Program-made: the position numbers and the translations under genes
The notes under the pieces: model-generated
Database searches by the model: none
What the model was told of the DNA's origin: nothing
Seen by the model: the letters and a program-made list of their open reading frames with translations, nothing else
Origin: Candidatus Woesearchaeota archaeon
GTDB lineage: Archaea; Nanobdellota; Nanobdellia; Pacearchaeales; GW2011-AR1
Direction of reading: 5' to 3'
Length of the DNA stretch: 64,000 nucleotides
Assembly: GCA_964495875.1 (NCBI GenBank)
Contig: CAZBWB010000001.1
Location: 10,269-74,268 of the forward strand
Shown here: positions 15,284 to 62,933 of the stretch, piece by piece
How the letters are laid out: every line of letters starts with the position of its first letter
How positions within the stretch are numbered: position 1 is the stretch's first letter

Positions 15284-15422
15284 CGCCCTGGACAGGAATC
15301 GAACCTGCGGGCCCCGAAGGGCGTGGATGTTTGCTCCTTCTCTTTTAAGGGAGGTTGACGGTCAAGGAACCGTAGGTGCCTTACCTTAGCAATCCACTGC
15401 AATACCACTATGCGACCAGGGC
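15284..15422 (-). tRNA. tRNA-Ser(GCU) with a ~58-nt intron at canonical position 37/38
   Basis: Acceptor GCCCTGG/CCAGGGC+G. Anticodon arm GTGGA-TTGCTA..A-TCCAC. Long variable arm GCCCTTCGGGGCC. T-arm GCAGG-TTCGATT-CCTGT. The intron 3' end AGCAA pairs with the anticodon loop, as in a bulge-helix-bulge (BHB) splice motif. Confidence 0.85.
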
Positions 15423-15482: not shown

Positions 15483-15683
15483 TAGCGGGGATAGGATTTG
15501 AACCTATGACCTCCGGGTTTCCCATGCAACTTCCATCAGAGGCAATTTAAGAAGTTGCCTATCCGCATCGGAAGGAGGTTGACTGTCAAGGAACCTTGGT
15601 CCTTTACATTATGGGCCCGACGAGCACTCCAGATTGAGCTCCATCAAATCTTTTATAACTTGACGAATCTGCTCCACCCCGCT
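15483..15683 (-). tRNA. Initiator tRNA-Met(CAU) with two introns (D-loop ~34 nt; anticodon loop ~89 nt)
   Basis: AGCGGGG...CCCCGCT+A (A1:U72). Three G:C pairs closing the anticodon stem (GGG/CCC), anticodon CAT, T-arm ATAGG-TTCAAAT-CCTAT. The intron 3' end ATGGG pairs with CCCAT. Confidence 0.8.
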
Positions 15684-15735
15684 ATATAACATTCATCTTG
15701 ATTAAATTTATAAACCTTTTTAATTTTCAAAATTA

Positions 15736-39147: not shown

Positions 39148-39341
39148 TATACCACAACTCTAAAATAAGTGCCTTCAGGTCTTTCAATTTTAATTACATC
39201 ACTTGGCTGGCACTTTTCCGGCAATGCAGGGTCACTTGAAAAGATTTTGGGCAACTGAGCCTTAGATATATTTAATTTTTTTAAAAGTTCTTCAACCTCT
39301 TTCTCGCTAAGTTTGACATGTTTGGGTTGTAGAATGTGCAT
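39147..39341 (-). CDS. rpoH: RNA polymerase subunit H (Rpb5 C-terminal domain)
   Basis: 64 aa; HVKLSEKEVEELLKKLNISKAQLPKI..SDP...IKIERP. Abuts rpoB. Confidence 0.8.
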   Translation of the reverse strand: MHILQPKHVKLSEKEVEELLKKLNISKAQLPKIFSSDPALPEKCQPSDVIKIERPEGTYFRVVV

Positions 39342-40221: not shown

Positions 40222-40335
40222 TGGCCCCGGAGGGATTTGAACCCCCGACACCTGGATATCTTCGCGTATTTACGAACCTTATCATATTCGCAACGCGTAA
40301 AAGTCCAGTGCTCTGCCAGACTGAGCTACGGAGCC
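40222..40335 (-). tRNA. tRNA-Lys(UUU) with a ~40-nt intron at 37/38
   Basis: GGCTCCG-TA-GCTC-AGTCTGGCA-GAGC-A-CTGGA-CTTTTA[intron]A-TCCAG-...GGGGG-TTCAAAT-CCCTC-CGGGGCC-A. The intron has a CGCGT/ACGCG stem. Confidence 0.85.
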
Positions 40336-52752: not shown

Positions 52753-52826
52753 ATGAAAAATATTTCATATTATCTTTATAAACTTTATGGAATAATGTTA
52801 TATAGAAATTAGATTATCCCTATCAA

Positions 52827-52907
52827 CGCCCACGGCAGGAATCGAACCTGCGCACCCAAAAGGGCCAAGATCTCCAATCTTGTGCAATACCACTATGCGA
52901 CGCGGGC
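52827..52907 (-). tRNA. tRNA-Ser(GGA), intron-less
   Basis: GCCCGCG..CAAGA-TTGGAGA-TCTTG, long variable arm GCCCTTTTGGGTG, GCAGG-TTCGATT-CCTGC, CGTGGGC-G. Confidence 0.85.
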
Positions 52908-52939
52908 ATATAATAACAGAAACATAATTATTTATTAAA

Positions 52940-53050
52940 TTAATCTTCTTCCAATTCACACTTTACACAAATCCATTTTCTTTCTACAGAAGAATATATG
53001 GTTTCCCCTAAACATTTCTTACAAATTAAATGATTTCCATCAATTGACAT
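52940..53050 (-). CDS. Small zinc-ribbon ORF (36 aa)
   Basis: MSIDGNHLICKKCLGETIYSSVERKWICVKCELEED has two CxxC pairs. It lies between two tRNA genes. Confidence 0.35.
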   Translation of the reverse strand: MSIDGNHLICKKCLGETIYSSVERKWICVKCELEED

Positions 53051-53068
53051 TTTATATCGATTAGAAAA

Positions 53069-53139
53069 TGGGCGCAGAGGGAATCGAACCCCCAGCTGGC
53101 GGGCTGGAGCCGCCTATTTTGCCTTTAAACTATGCACCC
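53069..53139 (-). tRNA. tRNA-Trp(CCA), intron-less
   Basis: GGGTGCA...GGCGG-CTCCAGC-CCGCC...GGGGG-TTCGATT-CCCTC-TGCGCCC-A. Confidence 0.8.
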
Positions 53140-56676: not shown

Positions 56677-56682
56677 TTATAA

Positions 56683-56735
56683 CCCTGGGAGATTCTTCAA
56701 GCCGTCAAAAAGATGACCTGAAGCCTCTCCTGGGG
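56683..56735 (+). ncRNA. Long imperfect hairpin (about 19 bp) directly downstream of rps27ae
   Basis: CCCTGGGAGA/TCTCCTGGGG (includes two G-U pairs that work only in plus-strand RNA), CTTCA/TGAAG, GTCA/TGAC, loop AAAAGA. Confidence 0.4.
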
Positions 56736-56817
56736 AAAAAGAGGTGATAGAATATTCAATACTTAGTTCTATTTAAATCTTTCTATTTTGTTACCCTTCG
56801 AAAATGACAAGCGGTAA

Positions 56818-59013: not shown

Positions 59014-59385
59014 ATGAAAAAGAGGCGTTCAAAAATAAATTTCCGTCCTCCGAAAAGTGTTTGTGATGCTGCAAAAAAAGGACTGGAATTAAGAAAAAAA
59101 TTTAAGAGAGGCGGATTAAGTTCCCAGGCTGCAGGAAAACTCGGAATAGGCTCAGGGATAATTAGGGCATCAAATCTCGCAAGAGGAATGAATATTTCTC
59201 CCAGAACAATTCAGAGAATGTCAAATTATTTCAGCAGGCATCAGAGAGACAAACGTCCTGGATGGAGCAATCCTAAAAATCCCTCAAATGGTTATATTGC
59301 ATGGCTTCTCTGGGGAGGCGATGCAGGACGAATCTGGGCGAATAAAATTTTGAGAGAAATGAAAGGGAAAAAGAATTCTAAATAA
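59014..59385 (+). CDS. Hypothetical basic protein
   Basis: 123 aa; ...NISPRTIQRMSNYFSRH...GYIAWLLWGGDAGRIWA. From memory only, this pattern reminds me of virus/prophage-associated proteins. Confidence 0.5.
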   Translation: MKKRRSKINFRPPKSVCDAAKKGLELRKKFKRGGLSSQAAGKLGIGSGIIRASNLARGMNISPRTIQRMSNYFSRHQRDKRPGWSNPKNPSNGYIAWLLWGGDAGRIWANKILREMKGKKNSK

Positions 59386-59454
59386 GACAGAAATTGTTAA
59401 AAGCAGATTATCATTAAATAATTCATGAGAACAAGAGAATTTGATTATTATATA

Positions 59455-59535
59455 GGGTTATGGCGTCCGTCAATCCTACTCCCCACACCATCGCAAAGCG
59501 TATGTGGCTTTCGTCAGGTCGCGTCCCCCTGCATG
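59455..59535 (+). ncRNA. GC-rich leader or possible small RNA upstream of module B ORF
   Basis: GC-rich patch between two TATA-like boxes (about 59445-54 and 59537-45). Direct repeats GCGTCC (59463, 59521) and CGTCA (59468, 59512). Hairpin CCACA 59483-87 / TGTGG 59503-07. Confidence 0.3.
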
Positions 59536-59585
59536 ATTTATATAATAGGTGTCGGGAATAGCTGGAGGCAGGAAGTAGAAATAAA

Positions 59586-60071
59586 ATGATTTTTGAAATT
59601 GATGTTTCAGGTGAAGATATTTTAAGTAAAAATTATTCAATCTGTATTGCTAATAAAGATGGAATTATTAAAGGTTTTAAATTTAATGAAAAGTTAGTAA
59701 AAGATTTAAGTTCAAGATATGGACAAGAGTTTTACCGGTATAAAAAATCTCAAAAAGAAAAGACCTTATTTAAAATTAGAATTTATTGCATAGCTATTTA
59801 TTATATATTTAAATCAATAAGGATTAAAGGGAATTTATCCTTAGTTATATGCAGAGATTTTGATGGAAAAGAAAATGATATAAAGGAGAATTTAAAATTT
59901 TTTATAGATAAAAAATTAAGACTAAAATTAGATAATATTAATTTTACAAGATTAGATAAAGATTCAACTGCTCACAGATATGCTTTTTTAATGAGAAAAG
60001 ATAAAAAGAATAAATTGCCTGTTTATACTAAAATAATATTAAAAGATTTTGAGGAATTTTTAAAAAAATAA
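59586..60071 (+). CDS. Hypothetical small protein with an RNase H/RuvC-like residue pattern (module B); paralog of 1823-2317
   Basis: 161 aa; EIDVSGED, KGFKF, VICRDFDG, LKFFIDKK, STAHRYAF. Confidence 0.55.
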   Translation: MIFEIDVSGEDILSKNYSICIANKDGIIKGFKFNEKLVKDLSSRYGQEFYRYKKSQKEKTLFKIRIYCIAIYYIFKSIRIKGNLSLVICRDFDGKENDIKENLKFFIDKKLRLKLDNINFTRLDKDSTAHRYAFLMRKDKKNKLPVYTKIILKDFEEFLKK

Positions 60072-60072
60072 A

Positions 60073-60164
60073 GTACCAAAGGGCACTACGAGAGTGTCGC
60101 TGCCCTAGATTGCCCTTCTGGACTAAGCCGAAGCCTACCAGATGAACTCCCTAGCAGTTGGTAC
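60073..60164 (+). ncRNA. GC-rich structured RNA element B, same architecture as 2327-2395
   Basis: Closing helix GTACCAA 60073-79 / TTGGTAC 60158-64. AGGG 60080-83 / CCCT 60149-52 with 3' bulge AGCAG. Internal hairpins CACT/AGTG and TCTGG/CCAGA. Starts 2 nt after the ORF stop. Confidence 0.45.
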
Positions 60165-60190
60165 ATATACATACATACATACATACATAT
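60163..60190. repeat. (ACAT)n microsatellite
   Basis: ACATAT followed by five perfect ACAT units (60169-60188), then AT. Confidence 0.85.
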
Positions 60191-60225
60191 AAATGTTTCG
60201 GTAGTAAACACTTTTATGAATATTA

Positions 60226-60308
60226 TTACAGCCTTTCCCAACTTTCCCCACCACTTTTCATATTCTTAACTTTAAACTTCCCGCTGGCAACTTCTTTCTT
60301 GCCAAAAG
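60226..60308 (-). pseudogene. hisS: Decayed duplicate of the hisS 3' terminus
   Basis: 60257-60303 matches 61024-61070 at 42/47 nt. It translates to FGKKEVASGKFKVKNMKSGGESWERL*, against VGKEEVASGKFKVKDMKSGGTRELRI* in the intact gene. Confidence 0.7.
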
Positions 60309-60312
60309 AAAT

Positions 60313-60657
60313 TTAGCCGTTAAAACCTCTCTCCCCTAAATTTCTCAAAATATTTTTTATTTCATTAATTGTTTTTTGTTGGGATTTTTTATCAGACATC
60401 CTTATAAATTTAATAACTAAATTCTGTAAATCATTTATGTTTAGAAGTTTAATTTCAAACCCGTTTGTAATAAAATAAAATCTAAAATTCTCATATTTTA
60501 ATTCCTTGATTAAAATTCCCCTAATCTGGCCCAATTTTTTTCCTTTATTCGGGTTTTCTTTTAAAGAATAGAGCAATTTGAATATTTTTTTGGACTTTTT
60601 CTTAAATTTTTTAAAAATCTCTTCTTTAAGACTTTCGGTAATTATTACCTCGGCCAT
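60313..60657 (-). CDS. RelE/ParE-superfamily-like toxin
   Basis: 114 aa; NPNKGKKLGQIRGILIKELKYENFRFYFI. A 13-nt overlap with the upstream antitoxin-like gene. Confidence 0.55.
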   Translation of the reverse strand: MAEVIITESLKEEIFKKFKKKSKKIFKLLYSLKENPNKGKKLGQIRGILIKELKYENFRFYFITNGFEIKLLNINDLQNLVIKFIRMSDKKSQQKTINEIKNILRNLGERGFNG

Positions 60658-62768: not shown

Positions 62769-62933
62769 GGTGGAAGGAGAGAATCGAACTCTCGTTTTGC
62801 GGATTTTGCTAGCAATTTCACATAACACAAAATCCGTAAACTGCTCCTGACCTCGCTCAAAGTCAAGGGCAACCGGAAGTTTCGCGAAATCACTCGCCAC
62901 AACCACACGTTCTGCCATTAAACTACATCCACC
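62769..62933 (-). tRNA. tRNA-His(GUG) with genomically encoded G-1 and a ~93-nt intron
   Basis: G(-1)GTGGATG-TA-GTTT-AATGGCA-GAAC-G-TGTGG-TTGTGG[intron]..CCGCA-AAAC-GAGAG-TTCGATT-CTCTC-CTTCCAC-C. G-1 sits opposite C73. Confidence 0.8.

Follow-up and report, generated by a model that had tools for sequence, protein, structure and literature searches.

The closest described analogue of the system reported here is the pairing of DUF3800 proteins with structured non-coding RNAs (ncRNAs). DUF3800 (PF12686) is an RNase H2-like domain that has been modelled on 1EKE and carries an N-terminal DE motif and a C-terminal QxxD motif (PMC7736814), and its RNase H fold has been described as catalytically rearranged (PMC10910872). 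The domain is linked to at least 11 mutually unrelated structured RNA motifs and also to the drum and skipping-rope motifs; these RNAs are found on either side of the gene and on either strand, they often have their own terminators, and their function is unknown (Weinberg et al. 2017, PMC5737381). DUF3800 has also been found in defence contexts (PMC10910872, PMC13594972) and as an accessory of type VII retrons, of Cas12a2/a3 and of a Cas13 kinase system (PMC7736814, PMC13594972, bioRxiv 10.64898/2026.08.25.746378). Here we analyzed a 64,000-nucleotide stretch of DNA from a Candidatus Woesearchaeota archaeon (contig CAZBWB010000001.1, positions 10,269 to 74,268), which as a whole is called the window in the following, and in it a small open reading frame (ORF), ORF_B, together with the structured RNA next to it, RNA_B. 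The two represent a new archaeal RNA family that is locked to a new RNase H-fold protein family, and from comparative sequence analysis they form a compact two-gene module of ~650 bp in DPANN archaea with the following parts, in which positions relative to the RNA start are given in brackets:

59586..60071, plus strand: ORF_B, 161 aa, isoelectric point (pI) 9.65, a basic protein with a predicted RNase H-like fold (homologues, AlphaFold2, Foldseek)
59536..59545, plus strand: probable TATA box of ORF_B, ATTTATATAA, ~40 nt 5' of the ATG, proposed from the sequence of this locus only
59564-59568, plus strand: GGAGG upstream of ORF_B, proposed from the sequence
60073..60164, minus strand: RNA_B, a 92-nt structured RNA gene with a three-way junction (covariance model, covariation, no Rfam match)
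60164, minus strand: predicted transcription start of RNA_B at a G that is the first base of helix P1, with a T at -1 (60165)
60186-60193 (-29..-22), minus strand: TATA box of RNA_B, TTTATATG, conserved at a fixed distance in 54 loci
60196-60200 (-36..-32), minus strand: B recognition element (BRE) of RNA_B, CGAAA, likewise conserved at a fixed distance in 54 loci
60165..60190, minus strand: (ATAC)n microsatellite with 5.8 repeats, the spacer between TATA box and start of RNA_B
60060..60072, minus strand: oligo-T terminator of RNA_B, TTTATTTTTTT, overlapping the ORF_B stop and final Lys codons

The window is AT-rich archaeal DNA (GC 32%) with intron-containing tRNAs, and the nearest relatives of its proteins come from Pacearchaeota and other DPANN metagenome-assembled genomes (MAGs). 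The original prediction, which had been made from the letters of the window alone, described a 161-aa ORF at 59586-60071 of the plus strand with GC-rich sequence on both sides. This ORF exists and begins with ATG, and its flanks show up as local GC peaks of ~0.5 at 59450-59549 and 0.45 at 60050-60149, compared to ~0.2 within ORF_B.

A covariance model built from the relatives matches 60073-60164 with 94.1 bits (E 6e-25) as its sole match in the window and thereby recovers exactly the 92-nt element that had been proposed downstream of the ORF. In its predicted fold P1 (7 bp) is followed by J1/2 (YUG), P2 (CUAG/CUAG), a 3x3 internal loop, P2a, P2b and a variable tip, and the way back leads through J2/3 (GGNNGC), P3 (6 bp) and J3/1 (CN) to P1'. 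Within P2a the strand G/A-U-U-C pairs with G-G-G-C/U (GUUC/GGGC in the window) and forms a tandem U.G, one U.G pair being invariant in 53 of 53 sequences. The RNA has a length of ~80-93 nt across the family and a mean column identity of 76% across phylum-level divergence. Standard pairs make up 96.9% of the cells in the alignment, and compensatory changes were found at 18 of the 26 pairs among 29 sequences and at 24 of the 26 among 54 sequences, where the 54-row alignment was fitted to the model and hence favours it, while the 29-row MAFFT alignment was not. When the 3' partner was slid by 1-3 columns only 33-53% of the cells remained paired, and no shuffle attained the observed values. The closing helix GTACCAA/TTGGTAC of the original prediction is real, with covariation at six of its seven pairs in the smaller and at all seven in the larger set. 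The AGGG/CCCT helix that was thought to be stacked on it, with AGCAG as a bulge, did not survive: it shows no compensatory change and is paired in only 82%, and its bases fall into J1/2, P2 and P3 of the three-way junction.

Three features place RNA_B on the minus strand, namely the asymmetry of G-U cells (read as minus strand the alignment has 82 of them and 96.9% paired cells, read as plus strand 14 and 87.9%, and the invariant U.G pair points the same way), the folding compared to shuffled sequence (z -2.5 for the minus and -0.75 for the plus strand) and a promoter at a fixed distance from the first base of P1. In the 54 loci this promoter consists of a BRE (GAAA, -35..-32), a TATA box (TTTAWATA, -29..-22) and an initiator with T at -1 and a purine at +1, and its conservation is highest for A at -34 and -33 (45 of 54 each), T at -29 (48 of 54) and T at -1 (42 of 54). 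Directly after P1' a T-run follows in nearly all loci, and in the window this terminator is the complement of the Lys-Lys-stop codons of ORF_B. The original prediction had described the RNA as a 3' element of the ORF_B transcript on the plus strand; as a plus-strand 3' untranslated region (UTR) it is ruled out by the G-U asymmetry, the promoter and the plus-strand z value. With its position on the minus strand and a promoter of its own, we regard the RNA as an independent RNA gene that is predicted to be transcribed convergently to ORF_B, and for annotation this means that the RNA strand is opposite to that of a naive reading. Alternating purine-pyrimidine spacers similar to (ATAC)n are also present in the loci L003, L007 and L040. 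The gene callers used for several MAGs have predicted spurious small ORFs across RNA_B.

No match to Rfam 15 was found over 59300-60400 at the gathering threshold, and at E up to 10 there were only chance matches such as mir-297, U12 and similar; five related loci gave no Rfam match for RNA_B at E up to 1 either. The set included tRNA, 5S, signal recognition particle (SRP) RNA, RNase P, C/D and H/ACA RNAs, DUF3800-I to DUF3800-XI, drum, skipping-rope and ribozymes, and the same tool detected a DPANN SRP RNA and a 23S rRNA in the related loci. None of the DUF3800 motifs in Rfam matched RNA_B. ARAGORN reported no tRNA or tmRNA at this position. By inspection, tRNA-like RNA, 5S, SRP, RNase P, H/ACA, C/D, hammerhead and riboswitch were rejected as no conserved boxes are present, the element starts and ends at P1 and its own strand has no gene downstream. 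The earlier proposal of a conserved RNA fold has thus been borne out, and the fold is absent from Rfam. RNA_B is a new archaeal structured RNA in which 24 of 26 pairs covary and for which promoter, start and terminator are defined by sequence conservation.

Using the ORF_B protein we recovered 56 genome loci spanning Pacearchaeota, Woesearchaeota, Nanoarchaeota, Aenigmarchaeota, Iainarchaeota/Diapherotrites and Micrarchaeota. Every one of them carries one copy of RNA_B (54 with the default covariance filters, the other two, one of which is a decayed ORF-RNA pair, with the filters off), always on the strand opposite to the ORF and 0-8 nt past its stop codon. Protein and RNA have diversified together, and next to a distant member with 24% protein identity (P0191) a GC-rich RNA with this architecture is again encoded convergently and has a BRE/TATA promoter. 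The linkage of ORF and RNA, suspected from two modules in the window, therefore holds in every relative examined, and no other synteny accompanies it: of 57 loci, no more than 7 have the next commonest neighbouring gene family, no two upstream regions are alike, and the adjacency to aminoacyl-tRNA synthetase genes that had been pointed out for the window is not conserved. In the fast-rearranging DPANN genomes this tie is tighter than that of any other gene pair.

The reverse search, in which metagenomes were scanned with an RNA sequence pattern independent of the protein, led to 40 loci. A convergent ORF is present in 29 of them, five are cut by the contig end and in six the RNA is intact (75-97 bits) and the ORF is lacking, so that 6 of the 35 informative loci lack the ORF and 83% have it. 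The ORF-less locus L073 is syntenic with L008, and several ORF-less loci retain ~10 C-terminal codons of the ORF as a remnant, which indicates deletion of the ORF and not a site that was never occupied. Among the 56 genome loci ten ORFs are frameshifted, interrupted, truncated or internally deleted, part of which frameshifts may be assembly errors, and the RNA is mostly intact. An ORF without the RNA was never seen among the loci examined, and decay is biased towards the ORF.

Such a pattern might also result from a selfish, free-standing nuclease gene that behaves like a homing gene and invades, degenerates and is lost at the 3' flank of a host RNA gene, in which case RNA_B would have a function independent of the ORF, as a cellular RNA specific to the lineage. 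The constant position of the ORF relative to the RNA gene, its presence or absence at syntenic loci (L073 and L008), the frequent degeneration of the ORF beside an intact RNA and the nuclease fold of ORF_B described below would all fit. Nevertheless we consider this improbable, since the ORF is present in 83% of the RNA-first loci and the distribution of the RNA therefore tracks that of the ORF, and since the RNA gene has no conserved genomic context. The C-terminal codon remnants at several ORF-less loci also argue against it, and the two modules with unrelated RNAs in one genome (see below) together with the many RNA partners of DUF3800 favour a partnership of protein and RNA. We know of no homing endonuclease with an RNase H fold.

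The neighbourhoods of the module point to an accessory, island-like element. One type of locus has it beside restriction-modification and PD-(D/E)xK genes, and on the P0082 contig it is located between an ABC ATPase gene and the gene of its permease, where the start of the ORF and the stop of the ATPase gene share 4 nt. In L106 (5733-7337) the module is part of an island with ParE, Fic, HepT-MNT, type I restriction-modification and HEPN genes and is flanked by a 60-aa UPF0758_N ORF upstream and a gene for UPF0758_N plus RadC downstream. The placements in L106 and P0082 suggest insertion, although no signature of mobility was found. Other copies are present among housekeeping genes. In the window, a 114-aa ORF beside the RNA_B promoter (60313-60657, minus strand) shows a weak match to ParE_toxin (E 0.21). 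An NYN-domain gene lies convergently beside the distant members P0191 and P0237 in several independent contigs (L107, L057/L058, L109).

These data also bear on the original prediction as a whole, in which a plus-strand leader and 3'-UTR structures bracket the ORF mRNA as a miniature mobile or RNA-guided element. The GC-rich sequence on both sides of ORF_B in the window and the real closing helix speak for it. However, the RNA is on the minus strand according to G-U asymmetry and promoter, and none of the other loci examined has the leader upstream of its ORF. As for mobility, apart from AT-rich noise the module is not flanked by direct or inverted repeats, it lacks terminal repeats and is present once per locus, and neither viral contigs, searched by protein and by RNA pattern, nor mobile elements gave a match. 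RNA_B does not occur as a tandem array, the only tandem repeat being the (ATAC)n microsatellite, and a variable, guide-like segment as required for an RNA-guided role is missing. We therefore consider this version hardly credible.

The protein search identified 137 homologues of ORF_B (E <= 0.01, 5.8 billion proteins searched), and those listed have 136-177 aa, most of them about 160, share 50-93% identity and carry no Pfam domain. Among 1.8 billion representatives, searched exhaustively with a profile, only 115 clusters at 50% identity were found, the longest with at most 217 aa, and by these sequence matches the family is confined to DPANN. No match was obtained in Pfam, NCBIfam, PADLOC, PHROGs or PDB sequence profiles, the latter meaning that ORF_B has no sequence-level match to any solved structure; the statement that it belongs to no described family thus stands at the sequence level, and the family has neither a Pfam nor an NCBIfam model. 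AlphaFold2 predicts the structure of ORF_B with a predicted local distance difference test (pLDDT) of 96.2 and a predicted TM score (pTM) of 0.92, and with the element order b-b-b-a-a-b-a-b-a-a. Nearly all Foldseek matches of this model are members of the RNase H-like superfamily. The best real PDB match is RNase HII (1eke, TMq 0.55), followed by the RNase H of reverse transcriptases (RT-RNase H), YqgF, Argonaute PIWI and uS11, and among the viral models of BFVD there are RNase H, Holliday-junction resolvases, DDE transposases and one DUF3800 protein (TMq 0.44). All of these matches are weak (PDB E >= 1.4e-3, BFVD E >= 5.5e-4, TM <= 0.55, identity 7-18%). At the fold level the model thus supports an RNase H-like protein, as the original prediction had guessed with its RNase H/RuvC-like nuclease, and RNase HII is the closest.

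Three motifs characterize the protein: E-I-D6-V-S-G at the N-terminus, I-C89-R-D91-F-x-G-x-E96 in the middle and S127-x-A-H-x-Y-A...D139 at the C-terminus. The residues invariant in its relatives include D6, S8, G9, C89, D91, E96, S127 and D139, and in the alignment and the AlphaFold2 model D6 lies in strand 1, D91 just past strand 4 and E96 at the beginning of the next helix. Distant members have kept D6, G9, G94 and S127, and their position 91 alternates between D and E. The acidic residues D6, D91, E96 and D139 are found where they had been predicted, and because of this conserved set of carboxylates ORF_B is probably a metal-dependent nuclease. Compared to RNase HII and the RNase H-like superfamily in general (RuvC, YqgF, PIWI, RT-RNase H), ORF_B shares the order of strands and helices (bbb-a-(a)-b-a-b-a) and has carboxylates at matching places, i.e. 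in strand 1, past strand 4 and in later helices. It lacks, however, the Glu found after the first Asp of RNase HII, and the active site would therefore be rearranged.

This brings us back to DUF3800, which the original prediction did not mention. With ~150 aa the DUF3800 domain is similar in size to ORF_B, both have an RNase H2-like fold, and the template used for DUF3800, 1EKE, is at the same time the top real PDB match of ORF_B. Both have an N-terminal h-h-D-x-S-G motif (YVDESGQD in the DUF3800 protein of L107 and EIDVSGED in ORF_B) and have a C-terminal helix with an S/Q-x-A-(D/H)-x-h-A-like motif. Moreover, both have a structured RNA partner with its own terminator, the folds of these RNAs being many and unrelated (compare modules A and B), and both are accessory genes found in defence contexts. 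There are also differences. Where DUF3800 has the E of its DE motif, close members of the ORF_B family have V and distant ones K/Q, with E in P0225 only. A QxxD motif is missing, the family having S-x-A-H-x-Y-A (N-M-A-D-R-L-A in ORF_A, the second protein of this kind in the window), with no conserved Q and with D only in ORF_A and some members. In addition, the module is restricted to DPANN archaea and its geometry is fixed as convergent and abutting. The module might work like a DUF3800-ncRNA pair and is possibly distantly related to it, but it is not classed as a member, because the Pfam model gave no match and the direct comparison, both given in full below, was not significant. The distant member P0237 is located 2.2 kb from a bona fide DUF3800 gene (L107, 3001-6196).

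With moderate confidence we propose that ORF_B and RNA_B are an RNase H-like nuclease and its cognate RNA, which would restrain it like an antitoxin, and that the pair is an archaeal analogue of the bacterial DUF3800 protein-ncRNA pairs. In this model ORF_B would encode a basic RNase H-fold protein acting as a metal-dependent nuclease. RNA_B would be transcribed convergently from its own strong BRE/TATA promoter, the transcript beginning with the first nucleotide of P1 and ending on the oligo-T that overlaps the last codons of ORF_B. We infer that the ORF_B protein binds its cognate RNA_B and that the abundant RNA would neutralize or regulate the nuclease, so that the module might represent a type III-like toxin-antitoxin (TA) or defence cassette. 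What suggests an antitoxin is that the ORF is never found alone while the RNA sometimes is, that the RNA promoter has consensus strength, that several copies are located in defence or TA neighbourhoods, and that two insulated, probably paralogous modules exist in one genome. If it is true that the RNA gates the nuclease, this would be a new TA or defence logic in organisms with poorly known immunity.

Several results weigh against this proposal. PF12686 gave no match for ORF_B, ORF_A or 33 diverse members at E up to 10, while the genuine DUF3800 protein of L107 scored E 7.7e-10 with the same tool, and an hhalign comparison with the latter aligned 17 N-terminal columns at a probability of 0.5%, which is not significant; D6 and S8 are invariant across both. 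The RNA is unusually conserved for an antitoxin (76% mean column identity), and as ORF-less RNAs stay perfect (97 bits in L066) it could have an independent function. In the known type III systems the antitoxin consists of tandem repeats that the toxin processes, and RNA_B is one non-repeated structured RNA; non-repeat RNA antitoxins of this kind have, to our knowledge, not been described. Finally, some copies are present among housekeeping genes, and neither viral contigs nor PADLOC gave a match.

Alternatively, RNA_B might not be an inhibitor but a positive cofactor, i.e. a scaffold, activator or specificity subunit of an obligate ribonucleoprotein (RNP) in which the RNase H-like enzyme serves a cellular nucleic-acid transaction. 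The strong conservation of the junction nucleotides and of the tandem U.G is typical of protein- or metal-binding RNAs in RNPs, protein and RNA co-diversify in distant members, the ORF_B protein is basic, and some loci are among housekeeping genes. An RNA that serves only this protein should however decay with it, and the ORF is often pseudogenized or lost while the RNA persists. The patchy distribution (1.8 billion representatives yielding ~115 clusters at 50% identity), the several copies in defence or TA islands and the lack of a variable, guide-like segment are further arguments against such an RNP, which we regard as unlikely.

Among the known TA systems, type III (ToxIN, AbiQ/antiQ, CptIN) resembles the module in pairing a nuclease with an adjacent, highly expressed structured RNA that would neutralize it, in being accessory and patchy in its distribution, and in tolerating loss of the toxin while the RNA is kept. 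Its antitoxins are, however, toxin-processed repeat arrays located upstream in the same operon, whereas RNA_B is single and convergent and has its own promoter, and its toxins have a ToxN/Kid-like fold, whereas ORF_B is RNase H-like. The geometry is shared with type I systems like txpA/RatA and bsrG/SR4, in which a small RNA with its own promoter is convergent to the partner ORF and overlaps its 3' end. One could ask whether RNA_B is a pure cis-antisense RNA that silences the ORF by convergent transcription and 3' overlap, with a fold that serves stability only. The two genes indeed abut in convergent orientation, the terminator of the RNA falls within the last codons of the ORF, the RNA promoter is strong, and as no strong plus-strand T-run is present between ORF_B and the RNA gene, a read-through transcript of ORF_B would be fully complementary to RNA_B. 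Covariation at 24 of 26 pairs, the invariant junction bases and the U.G tandem nevertheless exceed what an antisense RNA needs; the structure of RNA_B is strongly selected, and the overlap in cis is certain only over the length of the terminator. The RNA also shows no cognate pairing to the translation-initiation region of the ORF, where the mean of -21.9 kcal/mol for cognate pairs equals that of non-cognate ones (p = 0.51). Type I toxins are hydrophobic peptides of less than 60 aa whose antitoxins act by base pairing, while ORF_B is a soluble basic protein of 161 aa, and DUF3800-associated RNAs occur in either orientation (PMC5737381). We give the purely antisense explanation little credence.

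A coupling of a nuclease with RuvC/RNase H fold to a structured RNA at the 3' end of its gene is also known from the OMEGA systems (TnpB/IscB). These proteins have 350-500 aa, and their omega RNA is encoded on the same strand, overlaps the 3' end of the ORF and carries a guide, with IS200/605 ends delimiting the element. None of this is found in the module, and ORF_B has no Pfam match relevant to OMEGA.

In the window the module has a counterpart, which we call module A:

1823..2317, plus strand: ORF_A, 164 aa, pI 10.2, probable remote paralog of ORF_B with the same secondary-structure order
2327..2408, minus strand: RNA_A, convergent to ORF_A, with P1, a 5' bulge, P1b and two hairpins, conserved in L062
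about 2430-2438, minus strand: TATA box of RNA_A, ~22 nt upstream of the conserved 5' leader GUAGGAAGG

The original prediction considered it a second copy of module B. As far as the layout is concerned this is correct and for the proteins remote homology is probable, but the RNA fold is not shared, since the RNA_B covariance model scores RNA_A with just 6.2 bits (E 0.24). RNA_A was thus rejected as a member of the RNA_B family, as the two RNAs are not homologous, and a conserved AGCA bulge common to both modules is not supported either. RNA_A itself is conserved in L062, where its closing helix has changed in a compensatory way (AGAGAA/TTCTCT compared to AGAGGA/TCCTCT). For the proteins, an identity of 20-25% had been estimated by eye. 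BLASTP found no similarity between ORF_A and ORF_B and a close profile gave a probability of 0.09%, which led us to reject close paralogy; only with a broad profile that includes distant members did hhalign align the two colinearly, over 131 columns (E 2.6e-4, probability 42%). In this alignment the shared motif blocks that had been noticed before are in register, namely IDVSG with VDASN, ICRDFDG with ICGEGLN and S-x-AHRYA with N-MADRLA. AlphaFold2 models ORF_A with a pLDDT of 72.5 and the same element order as ORF_B, and weak RNase H-like fold matches were obtained to the Prp8 RH domain, eRF1/Dom34 and uS11. Only three homologues of ORF_A were found, and it is probably a remote paralog of ORF_B. 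L062 is the sole long contig with an ORF_A homologue, and in it an archaeal SRP RNA (1878-2141, minus strand, 67 bits, E 2e-13, below the gathering score) is located directly 5' of the module-A-type RNA; in the window no SRP RNA adjoins module A.

Since 2017 it has been a puzzle why RNase H2-like DUF3800 proteins pair with private structured RNAs, and this puzzle is now extended to DPANN archaea. As a tentative idea, which we think is more doubtful than not, modules A and B and the bacterial DUF3800, drum and skipping-rope pairs could all belong to one ancient superfamily of RNase H-fold proteins with private structured RNAs, in which a three-way-junction RNA would set the activity or specificity of a ~160-aa enzyme. 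A mechanism shared by such a superfamily might be RNA-gated nuclease immunity or RNA-dependent nucleic-acid processing. With ~650 bp, a 161-aa protein at pLDDT 96 and an RNA of ~85 nt, module B is a tractable unit that is well suited for binding, toxicity and structural work.

A further feature next to module B is the following:

59455..59535, strand not assigned: GC-rich element 5' of the probable TATA box of ORF_B, outside the module, candidate separate small RNA

The original prediction had taken this ~80-nt sequence as a leader belonging to the module. It is GC-rich as described, yet it is missing upstream of the ORF in the other loci, which makes it an element separate from the module. 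A second copy is present in L054 (3802-3863) with 90% identity over 32 nt and 100% over 20 nt around a variable middle hairpin; there it is found at ~520 nt on the far side of the RNA gene, with a BRE/TATA ~22 nt from its minus-strand 5' end. The ORFs adjoining it upstream are unrelated between the window and L054, and Rfam gave no match for 59455-59535. From this conservation the element is a candidate for a third small RNA.

Elsewhere in the window, two short intergenic GC-rich islands (39200-39267 and 56682-56748, GC at least 0.5) have no Rfam match at the gathering threshold. The only tRNAs reported by ARAGORN are tRNA-Ser and tRNA-Trp at 52826-53139. Rfam identifies three long tRNA genes (114-164 nt, presumably intron-bearing) on the minus strand at 15284-15422, 40222-40335 and 62769-62932, which ARAGORN does not report. 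Another region of the minus strand at ~15484-15690, with the 5' part AGCGGGGUGGAGCAG and the 3' part GGUUCAAAUCCUAUCCCCGCU, resembles a tRNA gene with several introns that neither ARAGORN nor Rfam reports; the motif GGAGGTTGAC(G/T)GTCAAGGAACC occurs both here and in the intron of the adjacent tRNA (15284-15422).

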